DNA of 64,000 nt, taken from assembly GCA_964016885.1 (NCBI GenBank), contig OZ024756.1, forward strand, positions 1,178,001 through 1,242,000, read 5' to 3'. A program made the position numbers and the translations under genes. Below, piece by piece: positions 2,010 to 31,680 of this stretch. Positions within the stretch are counted from its first letter, which is position 1. Every line of letters begins with the position of its first letter. Source of the DNA: Eledone cirrhosa (taxonomy: Eukaryota). The notes under the pieces were generated by a model that saw nothing but the letters and a program-made list of their open reading frames with translations, had not been told where the DNA came from and ran no database searches.

Positions 2010-3868
2010 ATAAAGAATCAAAAAGAACAGAAAGATGCAGTAAAAGAGATTTATTCGGTTCTAACGTACGTTTCAATAGACATCAATTTGCCTAGATCTC
2101 GCTGCATCTATAATATTATATAGTTAGTAGAGCATTCGACATCCAATGCACAATCGATTCCATATCATCAGAGATTATGTTTACCGTACCAGAATGTTCA
2201 GGTTTTTATAGGAATTCATGTGTAGTTGAAGTTGAGAAGAAGGAGCATGTGACAAAGACAAGAGAGATAGGGGGGGGGGGGGGGGGTCATGGTTGTTGAG
2301 GTAAAACAGAGGGGAGGATAAAATACGATAATGAAGTCTAGATATGGACTAGTCCAACTGTGTGTGTGCTAGGGAGATAGTAGACGTTGATAGGTTTATG
2401 ATCTATGATAGATGGAGGCAGGGGAGATTAGGCCGAGTGACTTGTAAAGTATGTAGGAGGAGATGTTGAATAGGGAAGATGTGGTCAATAGAAGGCATAG
2501 CAATAATCCATGGGGACAGATAGAGGAGGTAGAAGGAAGATAGAGGAAAGCAGAAGTCCCAGGATCAAATCAAGCCAGGTTTGTATTTCGAGAACGTAGC
2601 CTTGAGTCTGTGATTGCAATACAGAGTCCTTTCCGTTTTGTTGTTGAGAAGAGTATAATTCGATTTTAGTATATAAAATAGCTCCATATTGCATAATCGG
2701 CAGTAAGGCTGGCCTGCACGATATGCGGAAGCACTAGAGAGTTTTGTCCATTTCAAAGTGTATTGCAGGTTACTTTCGCGCAACTGCCAAATTGTATTGG
2801 CTAAGGTAGTTACGGAACGGTATTTGATGTTCTTCATCGAACTACGGTGTTGGTACCAACGAGATTTAAAAGTAGTAGAAGTACAGCCGATATAGTGCCA
2901 TCTCCGGTTATCCGATTCAACGGTGCATTGATACACCATATTGGATTCCATGCATTTGTTATTCAGAGGGCAACGATCAGGTAGGTTGCAGTTGCACTTA
3001 TCAGCTCTTGTAGTATTATTATCTTGTACAGGTTACGTTAGGTTTATATGTGTGTCTGCTGCAGGAGGGTTTACATTCAGTGGTTGAGAGTTTGAGGAAG
3101 TGTTAATGTAGTTGGGGTGCTTCGTGTGGATGTGCTGATTAATCGTTTGGAGTTAAGTTTTTTAATAATTAGATCGAGATTGGGTGCTGTAGAATATGAA
3201 AGCTTAATGGACCTTAGATTTAGTATTTTAGCGTATCGATGTGCAGGAAGAAAATGTGTTTTGATTAAATTGAAGAAAAGTGAAGAAATTTTAGATGTTG
3301 AGGCATTGTATATTGGGTTGTACCAAAGGTAGCTACGATTCCGCTTTCTAGCTAGGTTGGGTTGTGTGCTTCTATTTCGACTATGCCTGTGCGGAAAGTG
3401 TATGTTGTGTATCGTAACTATATTATTGTTTATGCTAGTGCGTTGTGAGCCCTTATTTCTATATTGGTGTGCTGGATCTATGTACTCTATTTTGTCTTGG
3501 TATCCAGCCACCTTAAGCGCGTTGTTATAGTAGTAAGCGTGCTCACTAAAGACCTGGGGGTAGATGACAGGCGTGATATTCTAAGGGAGATGGCCCGAGG
3601 GATAGACCGTATAACCGAGGGTGGATGATTAGATTTATGGTCAACATACATACTATTTTCATTAGATTTATGGAATGGGCGGAATTCCCCCGTCTCTAGA
3701 TTAAATGTTACATCCAAGAAATTTGTTTCAGTTAGGTTGTACTCAAAAGTAATGCTAAAACCAAGACTGTTTAAAAATTCGCTAACTTGCTTCGGTAATC
3801 TTTCTATTTTCTGGTTGTTTAGGTGTTTAGCTAAAAGGAGCGCATCGTCGCGGTAGATTCCACCCCCC

Positions 3869-3871
<3 letters not shown>
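2010..3871 (-). mobile_element. 5'-truncated, frameshifted Penelope-like element (RT C-terminus + GIY-YIG), Hydra-clade-like, with 3' hammerhead
   Basis: GGIYRDDA at 3841-3864; FLDVTFNL; SNHP; WYNP; CNCNLPDRCPL (CxCx5C); VY..YIGCT..FKSR..H in ORF 2565-2951. (TA)n on both flanks. Confidence 0.9.
2060..2174 (-). ncRNA. Hammerhead with long loop II in the PLE 3' end
   Basis: UCU-CUGAUGA-(U)AUGGA..UCUAU(U)-GAAA-CGUACG-UU-AGA. Confidence 0.7.
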
Positions 3872-3921
<50 letters not shown>

Positions 3922-4122
3922 TGTAAAACCCTTATCGAGTACTCTCTGGATGTTGGGCTTTGTATTTATCATTACTCTCTCTATATATATATATATGTAG
4001 GAGGTGAGTTTTATTGTAGCACAATAAAGCAATGCAAATATCGGATAAGTAGCACTCTACAGTTTGTAGGACTGGAGTATAAATAATATAAGATAAAAAG
4101 ATGGTTAAAAGAGTTCCAAGTA

Positions 4123-4188
4123 TTTTATTATACGCATTTCAAAAACAAATATCATCATGGGATGATATCTGCGTTCTCATCAGATTTT
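4123..4188 (-). ncRNA. Minimal hammerhead (family D)
   Basis: CUGAUGA..GAAA-UGCGUA-UA; stem I clipped by the arm junction. Confidence 0.7.
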
Positions 4189-4244
4189 GATCTTATATTA
4201 TATATATATATATACCTCGGTAGAAAACCACTTTCAATGGAATA

Positions 4245-4275
<31 letters not shown>

Positions 4276-4316
4276 TATAAATATTAATAAAATAGATGTT
4301 CTTTTGATCAATTACA

Positions 4317-4367
4317 TTTTATTATACATATTTCGGATGTACAACAGTACGTCCTCATCAGACAAAA
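4317..4367 (-). ncRNA. Minimal hammerhead (family E)
   Basis: UUUUGU-CUGAUGA-GGACGUAC..GUACAUCC-GAAA-UAUGUA-UA-AUAAAA. Confidence 0.85.
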
Positions 4368-4373
4368 TATAAT

Positions 4374-4559
4374 TGTTTCTACTTTAGGCACAAGGCCAGC
4401 AATTACCCAGTGCATTACTGGTACTTTATTTTATCGACCCCATAAGGATGAAAGGCAAAGTCAACCTCGGCGGGATTTGAACTCAGATCGTAAAGGGACG
4501 TAACTATGCTGGAAAGCATGGCGTCCGACCCTCCACCGATACTGCCAATCCACCGCCCT
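4374..4559 (-). mobile_element. tRNA-derived SINE (Meta-domain-like centre) with 19-bp TSD
   Basis: A/B boxes (TGGCAGTATCGG, GAGTTCAAATCC); core GCCTTTCATCC..GGGTCGATAAA..AGTACCAG; TSD TCATCAGACAAAATATAAT at 4355 and 4560. Confidence 0.9.
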
Positions 4560-4756
4560 TCATCAGACAAAATATAATGATACATGACATACCCTGAGAT
4601 GTTAAATGGTTAAGATTTAATCAAGGTAGTCTATCTATTTTATTAATATTTATATTCTAATATTAATAACTCCGGAAAATTAATTTTTCGTAGAGTGCTT
4701 CCAATCTACTGTAAAACTCATTCTTTGATATACTCATTGAATTTTGTTTAACTCTT

Positions 4757-4812
<56 letters not shown>

Positions 4813-5303
4813 CCATTGAAAGTGGTTTTCTACGGAGGTATATACCAATGTTGATTGATGTTGATGAAGTCGAAAGTCTGTTTACATTTCTATCGTTTTC
4901 TTTTGCGGTTGATTTTGGAGGGAATTTGGTGTCTGATATTACAAGAGTTGCAATAACAGTTGCTATCATTTTTCGGGAAACTAAATATGGCTGTTATCGT
5001 AGTTATTTTGATGTGAAGTGGTTTTAGTGAATATCATACCAATAATTCTTTAACTACATCATAGAATCCGTGAGAAGGAATTTCACCAGCTTCCTGATAG
5101 TAGAAGAATATATATCTTGATTTAAATGTAAAGATCAAGTGGAGTGGATATAATAGTTCGGTTGCCTTCGATGAGTTAACAGCACGGTTGGTGTTGCTTC
5201 TGTTAACACTATCAAATATGATCTTAAAAGAAACACTACACGAAATAAAATGTATTTTATATAATCTCGTCAGATTAAGGGAAGGTCAATAAGTAAAAGT
5301 GCC

Positions 5304-5351
<48 letters not shown>

Positions 5352-5367
5352 TCTGTCTCTCTCTCTC

Positions 5368-5398
<31 letters not shown>

Positions 5399-5403
5399 TT
5401 ATA

Positions 5404-5475
<72 letters not shown>

Positions 5476-5488
5476 CATACATATATAC

Positions 5489-5544
<56 letters not shown>

Positions 5545-5545
5545 C

Positions 5546-5616
<71 letters not shown>

Positions 5617-5680
5617 AATTTACAGATTAAAGTTCAAGCAAAGAATCGCTGCTTTCAATCTTAACGGGTAGTCTTCACAA

Positions 5681-5720
<40 letters not shown>

Positions 5721-5731
5721 TATTCCGTTTA

Positions 5732-5870
<139 letters not shown>

Positions 5871-5881
5871 TATTCCGTTTA

Positions 5882-6054
<173 letters not shown>

Positions 6055-6145
6055 TGTTATATTTGGGGAGGGTCATATTTGCGTAATATTGCCAGAATTA
6101 ATAACAGAACACACTCACTGTTTGGTTGGTTTTCGCTTCTCGCTG

Positions 6146-6176
<31 letters not shown>

Positions 6177-6484
6177 CATACATATATATATATATATGTA
6201 AGCTATCGCCGTATTTTGACTAAAGAAATTAAAGAAATTATTTAGCCTGATAGTGGGGTTAAGAACCCTCGGAGAAATGGAAAAAGATGAGTATTGACGT
6301 ACTTGTATTCGACTCCCATGTACGTCAATACTCATCTTTTTCCATTTCTCCGAGGGTTCTTAACCCCACTATCAGGCTAAATAATTTCTTTAATTTCTTT
6401 AGTCAAAATACGGCGATAGCTTACATTTCCAATAATTTCAAACCCACTCGCTGTTTCGAAAATATTCTTACTATATATGTGTAA

Positions 6485-6530
<46 letters not shown>

Positions 6531-6639
6531 AATTACGCAGAAGCGTCACCAATAAAACTAAGAAAAACAGAAAATATTTACTATGTAATGAACATGATTT
6601 AATAAGTACTACTACAGCCGTCGGGGTACTGACTCTTTT

Positions 6640-6700
<61 letters not shown>

Positions 6701-7427
6701 TATTGGTATATTTGGGGAGGGTCATATTGTTATAATATTGCCACAACTATTAAAACACACTCACTGTTTGGTCTGGATTGGTTTTCGCTTCTGTATCTTT
6801 TATATCTCCATAGTTAATTTATCTGGCAATCAATGTTTATCATTGATTAACCAACGATTAAAAATACAGATATAAATATATAGTCGATAAAAGTTCTTTT
6901 GTCACACATCTGTGACATCATCAGTGGTACTATTATGTTTTCTCCCATTGTATTGTAATGTCTACGCCATTTTTATTTAATCCATTTATTTATTCTTGCC
7001 TCTTTCTCTGTTTGCGTATGCGTTTGCGTGTGTGTTTTCTATTTGGTGTGTGTGTTCGAGTTTAAGTCTCTGTGTGTTTGTATTCTATCTTTGGTCAGTA
7101 GTGTGTGTTTATGTGTGTTTGTTGTTATTGTACTTGTGTTTATTTATTTATTTATTTATTTATTTAGGTTAGTATATATATATATATACACAGACACAGG
7201 CACACAGACACACATACATACAGACACACAGACACACACACACACACATACACACACACACATACACACACACACATACACACACACATACACACACATA
7301 TATATAATATATATGCGACTGGTGCTTTGAGAAAACAACACCATACTTCAGCACTGAGCATATGAAAGAAATCGAAAAACAGGTAAATATTATTCCATTA
7401 TGTTTTTCTGTTTTTGTTCAAATTCTA

Positions 7428-7486
7428 GCTGTCTGATGAGGTCATAGCTGTTACATAATGGTTATCACTGAAATATATATTACAGC
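7428..7486 (+). ncRNA. Minimal hammerhead related to 198-252
   Basis: GCUGU-CUGAUGA..GAAA-UAUAUA-UU-ACAGC; stem I differs from the 198 copy but still pairs. Confidence 0.85.
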
Positions 7487-7599
7487 GACTATGAATAAAC
7501 GAAGTTAATTTTAACCTGTTGACTTACATGCTAACGATGTGTTAAACAGTTTTGATCAAGAAATCTTTCCCTCAGTTATTCCATTATTCAGGGCGACTG

Positions 7600-8110
7600 T
7601 GTTCTCTCGAGCTTTTACAGAATGTGGGGGACGAAAATCCAAAGCAAACAGCACAAGAATTGGTAAAAGTGTTCAATACATGTCACAGGGCTATTGTAAA
7701 ACACCTTCTCGAACTGGTAAAGGGATCTTATCATGGTCAGTCGGGGCCACCTAATCTGACTCCTTCTCAACTTGATTAAAGAGTTGTTGTTTGCTCTTCA
7801 GTACAGACTTGTTTAATGACCCCTTTCTGGGAGGAAAAGTGAATATTAAAGAAAACGACACTGGTTATCACTCAATTAAAAAGGGGAAACCATACCCAAG
7901 CCAAGACTACACCCAGAAAAACTATGTCTGGTGGGATATGAAGGGTGTTGTCTATTATGAAGTGTTGAACTCAGGTGAGACAATTAATACTAGTAAGTAT
8001 TGTCACCAACTGGAATCACTACATTAAAATTTGCAGGAAAAGCAAGCATCATTGGCAAATCGTAAAAGAGTGTTGCTGTGTTGCTCCTACACGACACTAC
8101 ATGACCATTT
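7600..8110 (+). pseudogene. mariner-type transposase relic
   Basis: NPKQTAQELVKVFN..HL (HTH) and VWWDMKGVVYYEVLNSGETIN..KYCHQL, broken by stops and frameshifts. Confidence 0.8.
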
Positions 8111-8802
8111 ATTGCCTGAATATTGAAGTTTTACCCTCCTTATTCACATGAACTTTCTCGAGAAATGACTGATATGTCATCAAAAGTACACTGTAGAGAA
8201 ATGTTCTGCTGAGAGAAATACTTTTGGAAGCATTAAAATAAATAATAAAAAAATAACATGAAAGAACAAACAAAAGAAAAAAAAAACAAACAAACAAACC
8301 AAAAAAAATAAAAGCAGAAAGGAAAGAAAACAAAAATAAAATTTCTTGTTCATTTCTTGTAAACACCTGCTTTATAAAACATAAGTGGTAGAAGTGTCTG
8401 AAAAAAGAACATCAGTTTTTAGACACTTCTATAGTTACACGAAATATAACAAATATAAACAACTTTACTTTTAATTCTTCTTCTTTTCCAAAAATTTCCA
8501 AAATTATTCTCAGGTTTTGAAAGCTCGAAAAAATACATGAAAAATAGAAACACGAAAGAAAAAATATTCGTTCGTGAAAAGAAACAAAATCCTTGCAACT
8601 CGCTAAAATATGTTATTTTTTCCCTCCTCTCTTCTCCTACAAAAACATTTGAGTGATTATCATTTAAAATGATGTGTAGTACATATATATGCAATAGACG
8701 GGACAGTTTATGCTATAATATGTGCTCTTAACTCTTAAGATTTTCGTAGAGGCGCCGTCATTACCATTACAAACGGCATTTAAACCCAGTGAAACACCCA
8801 AT

Positions 8803-12319
<3,517 letters not shown>

Positions 12320-15404: not shown

Positions 15405-16640
15405 TCCGTACCCTATTCCCAATTCCCATGGTTTCCTGCTTCATCCAGCGTGGATATCCCCCCACCCTGATCCAAGCTGCTCTCACCCGCGCCCGTGAAT
15501 CACACCATACCACAGCCCTCTCACCTCACCCGCGTTCCTTCCCCTCTCACCTACCATCCCATCACCCTACCACTCCGGCGACATATCCTCCGTTTCTTCC
15601 GCATCCTCTCTTCTGACCCAGCCACTTCTCGCTTTTTTCCAAATCCACCCACTACTGCTTTTAAGCGCGCCCGTAACCTCCGCGGCCTTCTGGTGTCCCC
15701 CACGGCTCCACCCGGCTCTCATCCTTGTTCCCGTTCCCACTGCAACACTTGTCCCTTCATTTTCACCCTCACCACTCTTACAGGCCCTAACGGGTCTTTC
15801 CGTATCCGCCACTCCTTCACCTGCACATCCAGCCATGTTGTCTATGTCCTCCGGTGTTCCCTTTGCGGGTCTTTATACATCGGACAAACGGGACGTCGTA
15901 TAGCGGACCGTTTTGCTGAGCATTTGATGGACATACGACTCGGTTTGGATACTCCTGTCGCCCGTCATTTCTATTCTCCTGGTCATTCTTCCCTACATGC
16001 TTCAGTCCTGGGTGATCACAGGCCTCGCGCTCCAGAACTGAACAAAGTCTGATTCACCGCCTTGGGTCCTAATCACCTCTTGGACTCAACTCACATCCCC
16101 AATTTCTTTAATACCCCGTCGATTACCACACGCGCTTGTACATTCACCCCTAGATTCCTATTGCTCTCTCTTGATCATTAGCAGCTTCTCTTACAACTAA
16201 TACAGGCCGACTATATATGCTCACTCCACTTTTCCCTTCACTGCTCTGTATACACACACACACGCCCTTATATTATCATACTTTTGCTCATAGCTTCGTA
16301 CTTACATGCACACACACTCTTTTACTTACGCATACACACACATTTCTTCTTAGCTTCGTACGGACGTATAATAACACACACACACACACGCACACAAACA
16401 CATACATACACACACACACATATGCTTACGCACGTGCACAAGTATAGTTCTTTTTACAAAACGTTTTTTTTTCAATTTTAGGTAGACGCGCTCCATCATC
16501 CACTTTTCTAAAAAAAAGTGGATGATGGAGCGTGAAACGTTAAGACCCTCTTCCTGCTATATCAAGCGTTAACCTAATATATCCCTTCCATATACTGTAC
16601 CGATTGTGTTGTTATTTCTGTTTACCTTTTACACACACAT
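15405..16640 (+). mobile_element. PLE 3' fragment of Neptune type (thumb/linker + GIY-YIG) with pLTR remnant
   Basis: RGYP, LTYHP, FKRARNLR, PCSRSHCNTC, FTCTSSHVVY.LRC..C..LYIGQTGR...RF.EH. The 3' end (16520-16640) matches the hammerhead-bearing repeats at 18140, 37000 and 45700. Confidence 0.85.
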
Positions 16641-18139: not shown

Positions 18140-18175
18140 TCTTCTGATGAAGGACTAGTGTCCGAAACGTCAAGA
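18140..18175 (+). ncRNA. Ultra-minimal hammerhead (Neptune-type pLTR); decayed copies at 36998, 45700 and 16520, related one at 52618
   Basis: UCUU-CUGAUGA-A-GGAC-UAGU-GUCC-GAAA-CG-UC-AAGA. Confidence 0.85.
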
Positions 18176-18309: not shown

Positions 18310-18313
<4 letters not shown>

Positions 18314-18768
18314 AAAGTTTTATTTAAAATTGTTGGGTTACAACAAGTAAATATTTTATAACTGATATAAAGCACTCGACAAGTTTGGGAGTAGATATAC
18401 GATATTAAACAAATGGAAACTATATTTATAAAACCATATTTATTTCATTATACATATTTCGGGGATACCATATTAAAAATATGGCATGCCTTCTTCAGAT
18501 AAAATACAATATATAAACAGTTTTATAAATAATTTTGACGTACCATAAATATTGAGCAACCGTTATGTATGAAGCTGGTTTGGTAGAAACCAGCTTCCTA
18601 CATAACGGTTGCTCAATATTTATGGTACGTCAAAATTATTTATAAAACTGTTTATATATTGTATTTTATCTGAAGAAGGCATGCCATATTTTTAATATGG
18701 TATCCCCGAAATATGTATAATGAAATAAATATGGTTTTATAAATATAGTTTCCATTTGTTTAATATCG

Positions 18769-18772
<4 letters not shown>
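18310..18772. mobile_element. Two-armed PLE-type insertion with hammerheads at 18443-18504 (-) and 18664-18725 (+)
   Basis: ~185-bp arms, 5-nt spacer, tail on the left; CUGAAGA..GAAA-UAUGUA-UA. Confidence 0.85.
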
Positions 18773-18801
<29 letters not shown>

Positions 18802-19567: not shown

Positions 19568-19980
<413 letters not shown>

Positions 19981-19993
19981 ATATATATATATA

Positions 19994-22033
19994 CTAGCAG
20001 AAGTACCCGGCGTTGCCTGGGTGTAAGTCGACCTTTGGTCTGTTAGAATGTGTGAAAGTTACTTCCCGCGCATCACAGGTTCAAAACTTCGAAGTTCAAT
20101 GGAAAAAATAGGTTAGTAGACACAGGTGTGTAATTTCTTAATTGTAGTTACACAGTGTATCGTTGAAATTGTTCTCTGCACGACTGACGGAAGTCAAAAT
20201 CGCTTGATATTGAATGTTCAGTTAATTTAAAGCAGGGTGAAAATGTCGATTACTTTCAGGGTTTTTTTTTTTTTACAATTTTTGCGCTCACATGTGGAGA
20301 AGAAGAATTAAAAGGGCCTTTATGACGTTCCTGTAAAAAGTTTTCCCATGTGTAACTTTGCCTTGTTTTTTTGCGCAAAGTCGAGCCCCGCTTCAGTTTT
20401 ATTGATTTTTTACATCAATGCGTGATCTCTGAAGTAGATTTGAGTAGCTAAAAACCTGTCCCGGTAAATTTGCTATACGTGAAAAAAAGTTGATCAAAAT
20501 TGTATCTAGGGTTATTGCCCTTTGCCACAGCCTCAAGCCTCGTCTGACGGGATGTTGGTGATTCCTCCGTTAGCACTTGTTGGCGATGAAGGCGAACATC
20601 AGCAAGCCTTGTCGTACATGATGTTGGTGACTCAACCAGTCGGGAAAGACGTCTATCAGCGAGTCGAGATTCGCGCTCAGCAGGTGTTTCCTAGAGAAAA
20701 TTAATTAATTCTACTGGTTAGCTAAGCCAATGGCAGTGTCAATAGTAAATGAGAAAAGTCTAACATGAACAAAAGGGAATCAAGGTAAGACAATAAATTT
20801 AATATAACTACGATTAGAATGTTGTAGTTGCTTAAAAGTGGTGACAGTTAGGATAAACGCAGTACTTGCTAACATTAAGGAAGAATATTGCATAAAGGAT
20901 TAATCAATTGTGAATGAACTCATACCTGAGAAGGCCTAATTCGTTGTCTCAAAGCAATAGCTGTACCTTTTTTGGAGGTAAGTCTTGAACTTTTCCGTGT
21001 GGGCATAACGACGTGTAACGAAGCTGCTAGGTTAGAGAGAGGTGATTAAATACAGAGAGAGATGACAGCAGATTCGTTAGCATGGTTACTAGTGAATGGG
21101 AAGGTTTGGAAATATGATTACAATAACTTACCGAATTTTCCCGTCTATAAATTGCAGTTAAAATAATTAAATTTAATAAAAAAACAGCTCTGCGCTTTAT
21201 ACTCCGGTGAGCCTTATGTATAAATAATACAATGGTAATCAATCACGGCTCTAACAGAAGTAATAGATCTAGACTAAAAGTAAAGAAGATAGCATTTTCT
21301 GGTTGGCCTTACACGCCGTTGTGCGGACCTGATTTTAAATGATACGCCTTATATCCTGGTGAGCCTTATAGAGCGGAAAATATCTATTGGAAAAGAATAC
21401 GAATTCATGACCAAGGTGTGACAAAATAGGCGTCTATACAGTACCTGAAACAAACTTGTCCCAAACCCTAGGATTTTTCTCGTTAAGTATCCATCCAAAA
21501 GGAACCGTTTTTTAGTTACAAAAAATAACCAAAGTGTATAGTAGCTATATTTCTGACATATCATGCCAAAAAGAACAATATATTCAAAAAATGTTGTAAA
21601 GTACATTCAATCTCTCTTTTTGACCGATATCTTAATAAGCAAGTTATCGATTTTTTATTGGCTGTCAGTGTCTATCTGCATGCAGGTGTGCACGTGTGCG
21701 CAATTAATTGCAAATACGCTCATAACATTTAGTCGTAAGCAGAACAAAAAATGCCATTAGAGGTGGGCTAATAATGAAGACACAAACCCTGGTGAACTTA
21801 CGTTTAAACACCCGAAAAGTTACTCACTTCCTGTGCAAAAGACTGTATTATAAATTAAGTAATTTTTTAGAATCTTTTGTTTAAAAAAGGAAAACATTGG
21901 TACGACGTAACTTTTTTTACTTGTATTGTATGTGTACAACACAACTTGGTCAACGTATTATTTAGTAATTTTTTTAAACAAAACCAAAAGCAGTGTTGGT
22001 ATTAGATTCACGCTTGAGAGTGGGAGGGGGGAT
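19994..22033 (-). mobile_element. Helitron-like element (3' end clear, 5' boundary uncertain)
   Basis: Minus-strand imperfect hairpin CCCAGGC-AAC-GCCGGG, then CTAG|T at 19994. Confidence 0.5.
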
Positions 22034-22199
22034 ACATATATATATATATATATTTAAAAGTTAAACAAGGTTCAATGAATACATCAAAGAATGAGTTTTA
22101 CAATAGATTGGAAGCACTCAACAGTAGAAAAAGGTTTTCCAGTGATATTAATATTAATTCAAAATATTAACAAAATAGATATTCTTGTGATCAAGTATA

Positions 22200-22262
22200 T
22201 TTTATTATACATATTTCAGAGGTACTGAGTTAAGTTCAACGGTACGTCCTCATCAGATAAAA
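22200..22262 (-). ncRNA. Hammerhead in the left arm of the 22-26 kb PLE
   Basis: UUUUAU-CUGAUGA-GGACGUAC..GUACCUCU-GAAA-UAUGUA-UA-AUAAAA. Confidence 0.85.
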
Positions 22263-25200
22263 TAAGATGAAGAATGACATACCCTGACATAGTAGACGGT
22301 TAAGATTCAGTCATGGTAGTGATTAACATATGACAAAACTCAATATTTATACCCTAATATTGAGAACATGAGAAAAATATATAATACAAACAATAGAGAG
22401 AGAGTGCGTGTAATACAGCTTAAAAAATATATGGCATCAATATAACAGTTAAAAATAAATTTTTTTAAAACTACTGAAGAAAGAGGAAAGAAAGGAAAGC
22501 ATTGAGGAAGAAACAGCTGATGTGATAATATATTTAGTAGGTGCCTCGAAAGACAAATGAGAGATGATTAAAGAGAGGGAGAGACAAAGGGGAGTAATTT
22601 ATGTTCAAGTTTATATACAATTATCCATATATGGAATATATATCTAAAACCTATTTGGTTGACCGTTAATATTCAAAATCTTTAATTTAAGTTATTTCAG
22701 AGTAATGAGTAATATTTTACGTTTTAAAAGTTAATAGGTAACTATATTAATATTATATTATACTATCAAGTTTAATTTCTAAAATTCAAATTTTATGAAA
22801 ACAAATTTAAAGGACTTACGGTACACGAGAAAGAAAATATATAATGCTTTTATACCCTCACGAAGATAATCTTTACCAAAATTATTTATAATATTGACAA
22901 CAGTTTATATAATATCATTTATAAAATAATTATAGTTATAATTATTAAAGAATTTATGATTAAACAGTTTGAATACCTAAAGGATCAACCGGCCTTATAA
23001 CTAAACTTAAAGAAGTCTGAATTTTTAATTATATATATGTGTTAATCAAAAAATACACAAGGGATTACTAAAATACACAAGGGATAACTAAAATACACAA
23101 GGGATAACTAAACTTAAAGAAGTCTGAATTTTTAATTATATATATATATGTGTTAATCAAAAAATACACAAGGGATTTTCATCTTAAATATGATAAATAG
23201 AAAACTGCCGGAGATTACCTGTGGTTTATATAGGGACGATATTTTATTTACGGTTGTTAAACACAACAATACAGAACTAAACAGGGTAAAGAAAAATATA
23301 ATTGAATTCTTTAAAAATTACGACCTTAAACTAGAGGTAGAAAGTGGTACCAAAATAGTTAATTTCCTTGACGTTACCCTTAACTTAAACTCTGGTTTTT
23401 ATTTCCCTTTGCCCAATGAAAACTTAAATTACGTTAGTTATTACTCTAATCACCCTAAATCCGTGAAAAACGCGATTGTAAATAGTGTACAGAAATGCAT
23501 AACTAGAATATCTGCCAATAAATCAATATTTGATGAAAAGGCAGGATATTACAATGATGCGCTAAGAAAGGCAGGTTATAAAAATAATATAGAATATATA
23601 GACAATAATAATCCGAGTCTTAATCCTGATAAAAATAATGGCATATATAAACGAAATTCTAAAAATTCTAATAATTATAATTCAAACACCTATACTGTGA
23701 GTAGATCGGGATAAGAACCAGAACTAAATCAGTTATATGGTCTGCCCCCCCCCCGTTTCTGTAGCAGTAAGAACATCAATAGCTAATCTATTTTTTAAAG
23801 CTTTAGATAGTTCCTTCCCTAGTCAACATAAATACCACTCCATATTTAATAAACACACAATTAAACTTTCTTATTCTACAACTCTCAATATGGCCCAAAA
23901 CATCGCTAAACTAAATAGTATAATTCTAAACCAAAATCAACATAATGCTATTAATAATAGTGTTAATATTAATAATAATAAATCGAAATGTAATTGTAGA
24001 AATAAATCAGATTGCCCTCTGCAAAATAATTGTCTGGATAGAAATCTGGTGTATAAATGCACCGCAAAAACAAATAACAACACATACAACTACATAAGGG
24101 CAACTTCTTCGACATTTAAATCGAGATTTGCGAATCACAAATGCTCATTTTCGAATTTTAACAGGAAGTCTTCGACTTCTTTATCACAACTTATATGGTC
24201 ATTAAAAGACAAAAATTTAAAATACTCGATCTTTTGGACGAAGCTTTGTAATAGTAAAATATATACGAACTCGTCTATATCAACTAACTGCAACCACTGC
24301 ACAAAGGAGACCATATTAATAATTACTAATTATGAAAACTTAATTAACAAAAAAAGTGTATTATTCTCAAACTGCCTCCATAAAGCTTTGTCTACATTCC
24401 ACGCCTCGCAAAAAGTCAGGAAAGAACACTAAACAATCAGGCCTTAATATTTGACGTCTCTTATCAACTGTTGGGCCTAAAAAAGTCATAACGGTTTATA
24501 ACACTTTAATAATGCTTTATCTTCTAATCATTTATGATAGAATTAATGTTAGAATGAAGGATCCTCTTTAGATATATGAACATATTATTTGGTAACTTGT
24601 TTACTTGATAAATATGCACACCTTAGGATTATTTAGATATTTATAATTTTGATTCGGATCTTTATGTATCTGTCTCTGTTTTAAATATATAATTTGGATT
24701 TTTAACTTGTAAATTTACCGATTATAATTGAACTGTAGATCATTCATGCGTTTGCATTTTTTACTCATTCTGAGTATGTTTTGGGGACTCAGAAAGTTAG
24801 ATTTGCATTTATTTATTTTTTATATATATTTAGGTATAGATATAACAAACCATAATAGTCGACAAATATTGGTCTCTCTCTCCACTGAACTGGAGGTAAA
24901 ACTACAATTATAGCTTTACTAATAATGATTATAATTATTTATTTATTAAATGTATACCGTTTCACTAATACCTATAATAATATCTCTATATAGCTGTACA
25001 AATATGTTTATCTAGTGTAATAACATACTCGTAGTTACATTTATAAATAATTTAGATACTCAAATGACTCTATATTGTTATAAGTGTTTGATATTCCCTG
25101 GAAGTTCGAATTTATATAATGATTTTTACTTAATTTAATATAATTTAATTTAATTTAATTTATTTTAATTAAATTTAGATTACCTTCGGCTTTTTCAAAT

Positions 25201-26400
25201 ATGTAGCCTCTCTTTCTATCACATTCGCTAAAATATTTTAGACGTATCTTTTGTCTACTATATATTTAAACCCTATTACATTTTATAATTAAACTTTAAT
25301 ATTACATTTTATAATATATTTTTAATATTGGGCATTTTTAAGTTTCGCAAACATTTCATTATTTTTATTTTTTATTTTTATAATTATTTTTATATTTATT
25401 TTGTATCTAGCCCCGATCAGTAGGACTCATGAAGTTTTGACTTATATATTTATAGTATATATCAACTAAATGAAAATAATTCATATAAAACATAAATTTT
25501 TTTTTTAACAATATAATTTATTTGCAGTAACTTATTTACTATATTGTATTATTGTATTTTGTTATATTATATATATTTGAAAGGTATCACCTTAAGTCTA
25601 TAGACATTATAATCCTTGTGTATTTTTTGATTAACACATATATATAATAAACAATTCAGACTTCTTTAAGTTTAGTTATAAGGCCGGTTGATCCTTTAGG
25701 TATTCAAACTGTTTAATCATAAATTCTTTAATAATTATAACTATAATTATTTCATAAATTATATTATATAAACTGTTGTCAATATTATAAATAATTTTGG
25801 TAAAGATTATCTTCGTGAGGGTATAAAAGCATTATATATTTTCTTTCTCGTGTTCCGTAAATCCTTTAAATTTGTTTTCATAAAATTTGAATTTTAGAAA
25901 TTAAACTTGATAGTATACTATAATATTAATACAGTTACCTATTAACTTTTAAAACCTAAAATATAATTCATTACTCTGAAATAATTTAAATTAAATATTT
26001 TGAATATTAACGGCCAACCAAATAAGTTTTAGATATATATTGCATATATGGATAATTGTATATAAACTTGAACATAAATTACTCCCCTTTGTCTCTCTCT
26101 CTCTTTAATCATTTCTCATTTGTTTTTCGAGGCAACTACTAAATATATGATCACATCAGCTGTTTCTTCCTCTATGCTTTCCTTTATTTCCTCTTTCTTT
26201 AGTAGTTTTTAAAAAAATTATTTTTAACTGTTATATTGATGCCATATATTTTTTAAGCTGTATTACACGCACTCTCTATTGTTTGTATTATATATTTTTC
26301 TCATGTTCTCAATATTAGGGTTTAAATATTGGGTTTTGTCATATGTTAATCACTACCACGACTGAATCTTCTATGTTAGGGTATGTCATGCATCATCTTA

Positions 26401-26462
26401 TTTTATCTGATGAGGACGTACTGTTGAACTTAACTTAGTACCTCTGAAATATGTATAATAAC
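26401..26462 (+). ncRNA. Hammerhead in the right arm, sense to the PLE ORF
   Basis: Same motif as 22200-22262. Confidence 0.85.
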
Positions 26463-26508
26463 ATATACTTGATCACAAGAATATCTATTTTGTAAATATT
26501 TTGAATTA

Positions 26509-26542
<34 letters not shown>

Positions 26543-27003
26543 ATATATATACAAAGAAAGTGTGGTAAGGAACTAGGTGGACCATAACGCACCAGAGTAC
26601 TTGATACTTAGGGTAATAGGAAAAGAGTCAGGACCCCGACGGCTGAGCTCCAGCTGTTTCGACAGCTAGATCCGCACGCTGTTTGGATCTAGCCTTCCAA
26701 ACGGTCGGAGCTTAGTCGTCGGGGCCCTGACTCTTTTCCTATTTAATTATGTCTCATATAAAATAATACAACTGGCTATCCTGAAAATACGTATAGTTAG
26801 CACCCCAAACGTATAATTGGGATTATACTAAGGTATATCCTAATGTTTGTTGAGTGAGACGGAAGCCGGTCGGAGTATTGCTTAAAGCTTTCTCTGTTAA
26901 TGTATTAAATATGTATATATATATATATATTTGCGTTGCGTTTCGCTTTTTCTACCAGCCGAAATGCGATTCTCGTATATATATATATATGTATATATAT
27001 ATG

Positions 27004-29237: not shown

Positions 29238-29276
<39 letters not shown>

Positions 29277-29277
29277 T

Positions 29278-29468
29278 AATTGTTTCTACTTTTTGGCACA
29301 AGGCCATCAAATACCCAGTACATTACTGGTACTTTATTTTATCGACATCGTAAGGATGAAAGGCAAAGTTAACCTCGGCGGGATTTGAACTCAGAATGGC
29401 AAGGGCCGTAACTCTATGCGTCAAAGCATGGCGTCCGACCCTCTACCGATACTGCCAATCCACGCCCT
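29278..29468 (-). mobile_element. SINE, same family as 4374
   Basis: Full-length match. Confidence 0.9.
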
Positions 29469-29607
29469 TATAATATATATACATATAATAATATTATATG
29501 TATGTATATTATAACGGTAAAGAACGTATTCTGTGCTCTGCGCGAGCATCGAGTGTTCAACCGGCACACCTCCTACGGACGCATTTATCTTGCAACGTTA
29601 AAATTAC

Positions 29608-29743
<136 letters not shown>

Positions 29744-30002
29744 AGAATATTTTCGAAACAGCGAGTGGGTTTTGAAATTATTAGAAATGTAAGCTATCGC
29801 CGTATGATGACTAAAGAAATTAAAGAAATTATTTAGCCTGATAGTGGGGTTAAGAACCCTCGGAAAAATGGAAAAAGATGAGTATTGACGTACATGTACG
29901 TCAATACTCATATTTTCCCATTTCTCCGAGGGTTCTTAACCCTACTATCAAAACCCACTCGCTGTTTCGAAAATATTCGTACTTGATATATATATATATG
30001 GG

Positions 30003-30641
<639 letters not shown>

Positions 30642-31184
30642 GAGATAAGAGGAGCAAGTGAGATTCAAACAATTTTTTAAAATAAATAAAAAAATATAAT
30701 TTAAATATTCACCTATTCCTTTTGCTTTTACCGACGGTTTCACCTCACAAAAGATTGGAAATCCGAGGGACTTCCAATGGAAATGTTCGGTTTTTTCAGA
30801 AAGCATTTTCCCTACATAGGACGAAAGTCCCACGAACGGCAAAATATATTGCATTCTGCCAGCTAGCTTGATCTACACATGAATTAGCCCTTAGTGTAAG
30901 CGGAAGAAAACATAGAAGTGTTGTCTATCACACCACTAAAAATAGCAGCTAGGTAAAACAACGGATTTTTTCTCTACACATAGGAGCATATATAAAAAGG
31001 AGATCAATATATATATAACGAAGGAAGTGTGGTAAGGAACCAGATGGACCATAACGCACCAGAGTACTCAATACTCAAGTTAGTAGAGTGGGTAATATGA
31101 AAATGTTTAACCCTGACGGCAGAGCTCAAGCCGGCTTGATCTCTGCCGTCGGGGTTAAACATTTTCATATATATATATATATAT

Positions 31185-31680
31185 ATGTACATCCTCCGAC
31201 CCTCTAGAATTGTTGGATATGTACCTAAATCAGAAACCATTATTGAGTTCAAATCTCGCCGAGGTGAACTTTGCCTTTCATCCTTACGGGGTCGATAAAA
31301 TAAAGTACCAGTAATGTACTGGGTAATTGCTGGCCTTGTGCCAAACGTAGAAACAATTATTACAATTACAAAGGTGGTGTCTTGGCAGTATCGGTAGAGG
31401 GTCGAACGCCATGTTTTACAGCAAAGAGTTACGGTCCTTTATGGTCTGAGTTCAAATCCCGCCGAGGTTAACTTTGCCTTTCATCCTTATGGGGTCGATA
31501 AAATAAAGTACCAGTAATACACTGGTATAATTGCTGGCCTTGTGCCAAAAGTAGAAACAATTACAATAAAATGAAATACAATAAAATAAAATACCAGTAA
31601 CATACTGAGGTCGATTTAATCAACTTTCCCCTCCCCCGAAAATTGCTGGCCTTGTGCCTTAAACATAAACCATTATTACA
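31185..31680 (+). mobile_element. Tandem cluster of SINE copies (full copy 31373-31562 plus two partial copies)
   Basis: Repeated SINE core and 3' end. Confidence 0.85.

Follow-up and report, generated by a model that had tools for sequence, protein, structure and literature searches.

For Penelope-like elements (PLEs) of the Hydra clade, Craig et al. 2021 (PMC8557442) describe an endonuclease that is C-terminal and lacks the CCHH motif; the linker reads CxCX5C, CxxC and CxH motifs occur, the hammerheads are canonical and (TA)n serves as target. RNA recognition by PLEs and the origin of their one-tailed inverted copies are stated there as open, and reconstitution has been achieved for a single PLE, which is a Poseidon (PMC11167929). 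For the Poseidon PAc of Anolis, two internal reverse-transcription starts were shown in vitro to delimit the tail, both strands of an AT-rich target are cut and extended, and the protein is a predicted dimer (Frangieh et al. 2024, PMC11167929). The transcript of Penelope from Drosophila virilis starts in an upstream pseudo-long terminal repeat (pLTR; PMC2377424), and the pLTRs of Adineta vaga carry TATA and TCACT motifs (PMC3846280). The present analysis concerns a head-to-head PLE copy (the focal copy) from Eledone cirrhosa, located in a window, i.e. the whole stretch analysed, of 64,000 nucleotides (GenBank assembly GCA_964016885.1, contig OZ024756.1, positions 1,178,001 to 1,242,000 of the forward strand; coordinates below are those of the window). 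The focal locus is a broken, truncated copy from a known PLE clade. With moderate confidence, this decayed and 5'-truncated element is read here as having received both arms in one insertion via two reverse-transcription starts set by paired, predicted hairpins.

The minus arm of the focal copy (1.12 kb) comprises tail and hammerhead, while the plus arm (3.34 kb) is tail-less (Table 1). Region 22145-23067 is the reverse complement of 25610-26518 (94.4% over 923 bp; 38 mismatches in 909 aligned columns), in agreement with an earlier reading of the letters alone (hereafter the sequence-only reading), which had proposed a ~1-kb minus-strand arm with tail and hammerhead fused head-to-head to a ~3.4-kb plus-strand arm. 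The plus-arm order proposed there, i.e. reverse transcriptase (RT), CxCx5C linker, GIY-YIG, long untranslated region (UTR), hammerhead and no tail, is likewise present, the RT as C-terminal half only and GIY-YIG in decayed form. Homologues of the tail (identity 80-88%) locate at 4665-4760, 34326-34418, 46569-46650 and 54095-54187. The minus arm extends to ~23177; this stretch contains two repeats of 20 bp together with a 74-bp duplication of 22997-23066, and these junction repeats look like the result of slippage during end joining. Public reads of a relative (organism A; one sample sequenced in three runs plus a restriction-site-associated DNA (RAD) run; at most 29% of words shared) contain loose ends before 23172/23175 which run on into a Hydra-type RT motif B; the focal plus arm is therefore truly 5'-truncated. 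No target-site duplication is readable in (TA)n.

Assignment of the focal copy to the Hydra clade of PLEs is supported by features assessed against Craig et al. 2021 (PMC8557442). Despite its frameshift, it is colinear with intact homologues of 670-760 aa which carry RT plus, at the C terminus, a GIY-YIG domain, the fold matching GIY-YIG but weakly. The CxCx5C linker reads CNCRNKSDC (23989-24015) and CNHC..KE..N..CLH is present (CxxC and CxH beside E and N), CCHH is absent and the GIY-YIG domain lacks an internal cysteine pair. The RWK and DKT region is deleted, both motifs being present in full-length homologues. Both focal flanks and all five short copies of the same family (family E, see below) are inserted in (TA)n, and a predicted canonical hammerhead motif with stems lies near the 3' end. 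The size of <3 kb, descriptive rather than defining for the clade, is exceeded by the truncated plus arm alone, because its UTR measures 2 kb. In a tree of the RT C-terminal half plus thumb (27 rows), built with homologues typed by motif and with a bootstrap not fully converged, the focal copy grouped with the 22 Hydra-like rows, apart from three Neptune-like rows and a short Poseidon-like one (100/100), as sister to an Argonauta hians protein and P0029 (95/91). BLASTP with the focal RT yielded E 1e-19 to 1e-37 against Hydra-like RTs vs E 0.16-1.4 against Neptune-like RTs. Naiad/Chlamys PLEs (N-terminal endonuclease, no hammerhead) are ruled out by the C-terminal endonuclease and the hammerhead; Neptune, Nematis and Penelope-Poseidon are ruled out by the missing CCHH, for Neptune and Nematis also by the lack of CX2-5CxxC, and by RT matches to Neptune-like sequences at E 0.16-1.4 only. 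The Hydra-clade affiliation with CxCx5C linker and (TA)n target put forward by the sequence-only reading is thus borne out by every feature assessable in the surviving part and by the tree; the RT phylogeny it called for grouped as expected, in a tree that lacked published Hydra, Nematis and Naiad references.

The coding remnant is decayed. A stop and a frame change near 23712-23750 split the open reading frame (ORF), 6 bp are absent at 23410 relative to other copies, and the endonuclease motif reads LVY..YIR, YIR replacing YIG and other copies having G at 24097. The RT half matched Pfam RVT_1 at E 0.0025, below the curated cut-off, and for the second coding piece (23728-24432) the Pfam search matched no domain. 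The AlphaFold model of this piece (predicted local distance difference test, pLDDT, 85) had the GIY-YIG nucleases T4 EndoII, Hpy188I and I-TevI as top Foldseek matches, none of them at E<=0.001 (best E 0.045); at the sequence level, 5382 cluster representatives are related to the endonuclease piece at E<=0.001. The PDB sequence search yielded nothing but a retron RT (E 0.016), and none of the viral contigs encodes a relative. Between ORF and hammerhead the focal UTR measures ~2.0 kb; in related loci, 41 of 80 of which showed a hammerhead, this distance is 80-530 nt with a median of 145. In organism A this long UTR is repetitive throughout its length, and a contig of depth 38 spans the stop codon. 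A second, distant Hydra-type coding copy is located at 2010-3870 (-), its RT 38% identical to the focal one; it is 5'-truncated at YRDD, frameshifted, reads CNCx5C, and has a ~390-nt UTR, a single tail-less arm, a G-run at the 5' junction and a hammerhead-like motif with long stem II at ~2179.

The paired hairpins were recognized from the tails. GTNGAGTGCT is common to the tails of four sequence-distinct window families (14 matches vs 0.07 expected), and 13 of the 14 matches sit 47-62 nt before a (TA)n run; the match at 33010, devoid of hairpin and TA context, was treated as chance. At the focal site, where the 5' half of the hairpin is mutated, copies of organism A show the ACTC form at 22143/22145. 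The bulged hairpin of the tails reads RCTC..GAGYRCT, metagenome loci having the form GCTC-stem-loop-stem-T[TCA]-GAGCACT, with an outer pair of G-C there and of A-U in the window. Among the related loci (L001-L080, the best 80 of 414 metagenome loci, with many ORFs still intact), the hairpin was found in 24 of the 34 with at least 85 nt after the hammerhead (null 0.018), while 6 reach (TA)n earlier and 4 show neither; L044 and L070 carry variants judged by eye. The inner stem varies with compensating changes; its positions 1 and 2 pair in 31/33 and 25/33 cases (null 24.7 and 14.7; 0/5000 shuffles), position 3 in 19/33 (218/5000). Across 71 hairpin sequences, retained from 76 pattern matches after five likely chance matches were dropped by eye with no formal rule, 90.6% of cells pair vs 79.3% when shuffled and 23-57% when slid, with a covariation of 0.300 vs 0.111.

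A covariance model (R1) built from non-window sequences recovered at E<=1.8 eight of the 13 window tails, four of which reach E<=0.02, and in addition five further sites (four matches in family J and one at 48502); the focal tail, whose hairpin is mutated in its 5' half, was missed. Around canonical (Neptune/Poseidon-like) PLEs, the same model gave a single match across 14 of the 15 loci (93 kb), located in a separate TA-flanked stub. In 30 of the 34 full-length Hydra-type loci the hairpin also lies upstream of the ORF at a distance of no more than 200 nt, usually in two copies spaced 34-56 nt apart (hairpin 1 to hairpin 2), so that the tail would represent the start of the 5' UTR of the next unit. 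Two individual hairpins may be added: the best model match, a canonical GCTC..GAGCACT hairpin at 48502-48544 (+), lies ~75 nt before a TA run, and the second hairpin of L019 (436-464) has a 15-nt inner part identical to that of window family G at 58688-58718 (-), the two stemming from different data sets. Fifteen further loci (L081-L095), all from one GTDB 'bacterium' metagenome-assembled genome (MAG), contain animal PLE sequence of Neptune, Poseidon and Hydra type, which is likely host contamination of the MAG.

Both insertion ends can be placed relative to the two hairpins. Of 22 points at which genomic copies cease to match a two-hairpin reference, 10 are situated 0-5 nt before a hairpin (4 at hairpin 1, 6 at hairpin 2), hairpin 1 corresponding to the short end and hairpin 2 to the tailed end. 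The bases directly upstream of the hairpins are TA-rich, and pairing with nicked (TA)n is therefore possible. All two-armed insertions with both ends readable by eye combine one tailed with one short arm (16/16; 0.5^16 if ends were independent), i.e. 5/5 in family E including the focal copy, 2/2 in F, 5/5 in G (two with a 17-bp second arm) and 4/4 in J. Not counted are 38803 and the second coding copy, each with one arm, the insertion at 36474 with its unreadable second arm, 1-391 at the window edge, the interrupted 48690, and 48502. L019, considered as a tailed-plus-tailed counter-example, actually represents two different families arranged tail to tail.

In the focal copy the tailed arm is the shorter one, which rules out that either arm was copied from the other by fold-back. 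For Adineta Penelopes, self-priming through fold-back, perhaps on an antisense template, has been proposed as the source of inverted arms (PMC3846280), and the near-perfect hairpin centres at 34596, 18586, 19790 and 49010 would agree with it. Symmetric centres are, however, also expected when two cDNAs reach the same RNA 5' end, and in the focal copy as well as at 46410, 39469 and 60303 it is the arm without tail that extends further 5', the tail being confined to the other arm, which is impossible from fold-back of a single cDNA; this origin is considered highly improbable. Both focal arms likely derive from one insertion. In the preferred two-start reading, a dimeric RT-endonuclease would bind the two hairpins, one protomer each, both strands of the (TA)n target would be nicked, and one cDNA would be primed just 5' of each hairpin on opposite strands. 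The two cDNAs would then grow toward each other and join via microhomology, with templated repeats.

Five short insertions in the window belong to the same family as the focal copy. As claimed by the sequence-only reading, those at 4270, 34326, 38803, 46410 and 54095 match the focal hammerhead region and its flanks, at 73-87%; the hammerhead region itself matches at 77-86%, and the arms within one insertion at 94-96%. The E copies group into subfamilies 75-89% apart. The focal copy being broken and the E copies, 73-88% identical to it, forming sister subfamilies, the former is a relative of their source rather than the source itself. An identity of the short copies as miniature inverted-repeat transposable elements (MITEs), i.e. 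DNA transposons with fixed terminal inverted repeats, was rejected on account of asymmetric ends, varying centres and the retroelement 3' end sequence. Their identity as non-LTR retrozymes was rejected as well, since all five window copies are head-to-head or single and none is a head-to-tail tandem.

In four of the five short E insertions the longer arm ends within ~10 nt of the site equivalent to 22320. These 5' ends would coincide with a predicted transcription start at 22320, a connection less firmly drawn than that of the hairpins. The TATA motif of this putative pLTR promoter (Table 1) lies exactly 31 nt upstream of the Inr (initiator)-like TCACT, one of only 2 such pairs in the 917-nt arm; in the focal plus arm the TATA is mutated. 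Independent insertions have common 5' ends in family G (58879, 60315) and in family H (~113, ~49010). A strict TATA within 110 nt upstream of the hammerhead was detected in 12 of 39 related loci (null 5.8; 4/1000 shuffles), 7 of them at -37 to -42. In organism A, where depth is not copy number, the summed depth (run X1) reaches 245,000 at 22181-22331, falls to 14,600 in the bin that follows and ranges over 2,300-10,700 across the ORF; 3'-end depth is ~20-100 times ORF depth, with a 17-fold drop beyond 22331 between adjacent 150-nt bins. Joints fall at 22316 and 22320, within the predicted promoter.

These data are consistent with a leader origin of the short copies, proposed less firmly than the two-hairpin rule, which is well supported by the sequences compared. 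Transcription would start from the TATA/Inr promoter ~64 nt upstream of the hammerhead, placing both hairpins near the mRNA 5' end, and priming there would copy a leader of only ~170-270 nt. Abundant mini-palindromes with a fixed 5' end and without TATA would result. Long copies of the focal type would arise from read-through RNA across a tandem, primed at the hairpins of the downstream unit. Extended to the clade, two 5'-UTR hairpins may act as an RNA code which docks an RT dimer, every insertion being two-primer and the products mainly promoter-less leader palindromes; this wider proposal is tentative. If true, the tail of PLEs, their head-to-head inversion and the large number of hammerhead stubs would all follow from one rule.

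Several observations weigh against parts of this reading. For the hairpins, the four outer pairs were preselected by the search pattern and relatedness inflates the shuffle tests. Twelve of the 22 match ends lie away from the hairpins, 9 of them (at -35 to -47) being read as cross-family matches of the hammerhead region and 3 as diverged alignments. A single template for both focal arms would fit the seven of 14 sites differing from organism A that the two arms have in common, but these may be species differences. For the leader, a strict TATA is present in only 12/39 related loci and TATA plus Inr in 4/39, three of these from one family; the arms of family J vary in length without a common 5' end, and several window arms stop short of the fixed 5' end.

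The rarity of TATA plus Inr and the arms shorter than the fixed end would fit a low-processivity RT which truncates full-length RNA, the cluster of 5' ends marking a pause at RNA structure ~65 nt upstream of the hammerhead. So would the continuum of arm lengths in organism A, visible as head-to-head joints, among the 15 of 59 joints and 12 of 48 in-between rows listed, at 22125>23823, 22119>24029, 22456>26221 and 22550>25519, next to 22316>26372, 22320>26378 and 22201>26373; from these many arm lengths it follows that the family makes palindromes of all sizes. Truncation as the general cause is nevertheless judged unlikely in view of the depth step between adjacent bins, the canonical spacing of TATA and Inr-like site exactly at the cluster and the 5' ends common to independent insertions of families G and H. 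The interpretation of the short palindromes as heavily truncated products of this machinery, offered by the sequence-only reading, accordingly stands in part: the link itself is supported by joints of many lengths and by the excess of 3'-end depth in organism A, whereas sister subfamilies and non-random 5' ends call for amendment.

Two joints are 5-30 times deeper than the others, 22550>25519 (depth 245-366) and 22316>26372 (92-105) vs 5-19 elsewhere, which also runs counter to the two-start reading and suggests that some palindromes are amplified as units. Together with the distances between E subfamilies and the description of non-LTR retrozymes as non-autonomous PLE derivatives (10.64898/2026.07.22.740005), they would accord with separate non-autonomous masters (SINE-like, i.e. 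resembling short interspersed elements, or retrozyme-like) or with retrotransposition of whole palindromes, mobilised in trans. This appears quite improbable, as palindrome centres differ within a subfamily (4270 vs 46410; 34326 vs 54095), upstream TATA and second hairpin are both missing from the short arms, the window shows no short unit in head-to-tail tandem, and the sides of the deep joints, only 23-30 nt long, may lie inside another repeat.

Hammerhead motifs were identified by descriptor, with 27 in the window vs 0.03 per shuffle (30 shuffles). Rfam reported no hammerhead in 22000-26600 and no relevant family at the locus or in four related loci; in the whole-window scan, the 150 matches listed of 382 comprised only look-alikes driven by microsatellites or palindromes. 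The minimum-energy fold of the minus-arm hammerhead is no better than shuffles (z -0.27), and for single hammerheads and tails minimum-energy folds alone fail to show the proposed structures. A 27-nt look-alike of the 3' half of the E hammerhead lies antisense inside the long UTR at 25560-25586 (-); it is marginal (1/100 shuffles, 14 tests) and might be what is left of an inverted arm captured at an earlier time. The organism A joints 25586>26423 and 25586>22241 were set aside as an alignment effect of this look-alike.

Table 1. Features of the focal head-to-head copy and of the short family E insertions in the window
Feature	Position	Strand	Remarks
Whole unit	22053..26512		Two arms joined 5'-to-5'; bounded by (TA)n runs on both sides
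Tail	22053..22144	-	~92 nt; minus arm only; homologous tails in E copies
Bulged hairpin (predicted)	22113..22148	-	3' half GTTGAGTGCT intact; 5' half mutated in focal copy
Inverted arm body	22145..23067	-	Last 0.9 kb of 3' UTR; 94.4% arm match
Type I hammerhead motif	22196..22266	-	Core starts at 22256; stem III palindrome-like
Predicted pLTR promoter	22316..22351	-	TATAAATA at 22351; Inr-like TCACT with A at 22320 (+31)
Head-to-head junction	23068..23177		Two 20-bp repeats, 74-bp duplication, 5-6 nt microhomology (GGGATT, 23172-23177)
5'-truncated RT	23172..23711	+	End of motif B, YRDD, FLD, thumb; stop at 23712
Second coding piece	23728..24432	+	Thumb end, CxCx5C linker, GIY-YIG endonuclease, R/H/E/N, CxxC, CxH
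AT-rich 3' UTR	24433..26396	+	~2.0 kb as far as hammerhead
Type I hammerhead motif	26397..26467	+	Core at 26407; stem I weakened
Tail-less (short) 3' end	26468..26512	+	Enters (TA)n ~5 nt before hairpin position
Short E insertion	4267..4760		Tail-less minus arm (split by 190-bp repeat) and tailed plus arm
Short E palindrome	34326..34771		Tailed minus arm and tail-less plus arm
Short E insertion	38800..38937	-	One arm only, tail-less
Short E insertion	46410..46650		Tail-less minus arm and plus arm of tail only
Short E palindrome	54095..54450		Tailed minus arm and tail-less plus arm

Further palindromic stubs are spread over the window. They comprise families F (18310-18776, 35364-35727), G (3994-4200, 19685-19981, 39469-39595, 58635-59050, 60303-60487) and H (1-391, 48690-49153), mostly with hammerheads, which have the tail hairpin but little else in common with E and no coding copy in the window. 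Family J, with the hairpin variant ACTC..GAGTACT, locates at 26546-26743, 31007-31170, 36474-36570, 42211-42330 and 61193-61330, the first of these adjoining the focal element on the right in the same (TA)n run. A Neptune-like PLE endonuclease fragment (CxxC linker, CCHH) is present at 15471-16049 (+), and Neptune-like elements may also be the source of the minimal hammerhead-like motifs at 18144, 37002, 45852 and 46123. A small element with 32-bp inverted ends (4214-4250 and 4810-4841), possibly a MITE or another stub, harbours the 4270 insertion in its (TA)n centre; the hammerhead of this insertion is in turn interrupted, with an 18-bp duplication, by an abundant 190-bp dispersed repeat (4370-4560, 29276-29469, 31244-31563, 40009-40160, 41018-41240, 56830-57007), which may resemble an octopus SINE-like repeat. 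Long palindromes with 84-97% arm identity were found at 53043-53861, 29986-30569, 37745-38018 and 61529-62176, with hammerhead-like cores at 30364 and 37903/37860, and tandem arrays of 55-bp and 75-bp units at 54745-56401 and 49342-50155, in which the descriptor detected no complete hammerhead. An open frame of 419 codons at 62742-63998 (-), with a poly-alanine run and a TFSIDSII string that is presumably eh1-like, probably represents a host transcription-factor exon.

A short, covarying, twice-repeated hairpin which predicts both insertion ends offers a direct mutational test and a diagnostic for ORF-less Hydra-clade stubs; stubs of this kind account for a large part of the window's small palindromes and might be wrongly annotated as MITEs, SINEs or microRNA (miRNA) hairpins. 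The paired hairpin, its tie to both ends and a leader origin of stubs were not found in Rfam or in the literature searched, mostly without subscription papers and with Repbase and Dfam outside the search. The accessible text of PMC8557442 holds no mention of paired hairpins, the end rule or the tailed-plus-short rule, and of two further papers considered, PMC4209133 and PMC13282606, the passages of the latter mention neither hammerheads nor Hydra.

Head-to-head PLE insertions with one tail are already known, and the locus belongs to a known clade, its cis-element and end rule being apparently undescribed. With the Hydra clade (PMC8557442; e.g. Hydra-1_Obim, Penelope-13_HM) the focal copy shares CxCx5C, CxxC/CxH, lack of CCHH, hammerhead and (TA)n target; Penelope-13_HM likewise carries an inverted, 5'-truncated copy at its own 5' end, and published Hydra consensus ends, judged by eye, also contain GAGCACT. 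It differs in size, as a full element would exceed 4 kb vs <3 kb in the clade, and its tail of ~92 nt contrasts with the 30-40 bp quoted for PLEs. Non-LTR retrozymes (10.64898/2026.07.22.740005) resemble the E stubs in being short, non-coding, equipped with a type I hammerhead and related to PLE pLTRs, but form head-to-tail tandems, whereas E stubs are head-to-head pairs with varying centres. The Penelope elements of Adineta vaga (PMC3846280) and Drosophila virilis (PMC2377424) share the inverted pLTR, the tail on one arm, palindromic centres, solo pLTRs and a pLTR promoter or TATA-Inr-like motif; the two papers attribute solo pLTRs to recombination or deletion and inversions to self-priming, whereas two primers and, more weakly, leader copying are favoured here. 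The PAc element (PMC11167929) belongs to another clade and its starts, evidenced in vitro, locate in an AC-rich stem-loop inside the ORF start, whereas the two-start scheme deduced for Hydra-type elements from genomes would place them just 5' of two 5'-UTR hairpins.

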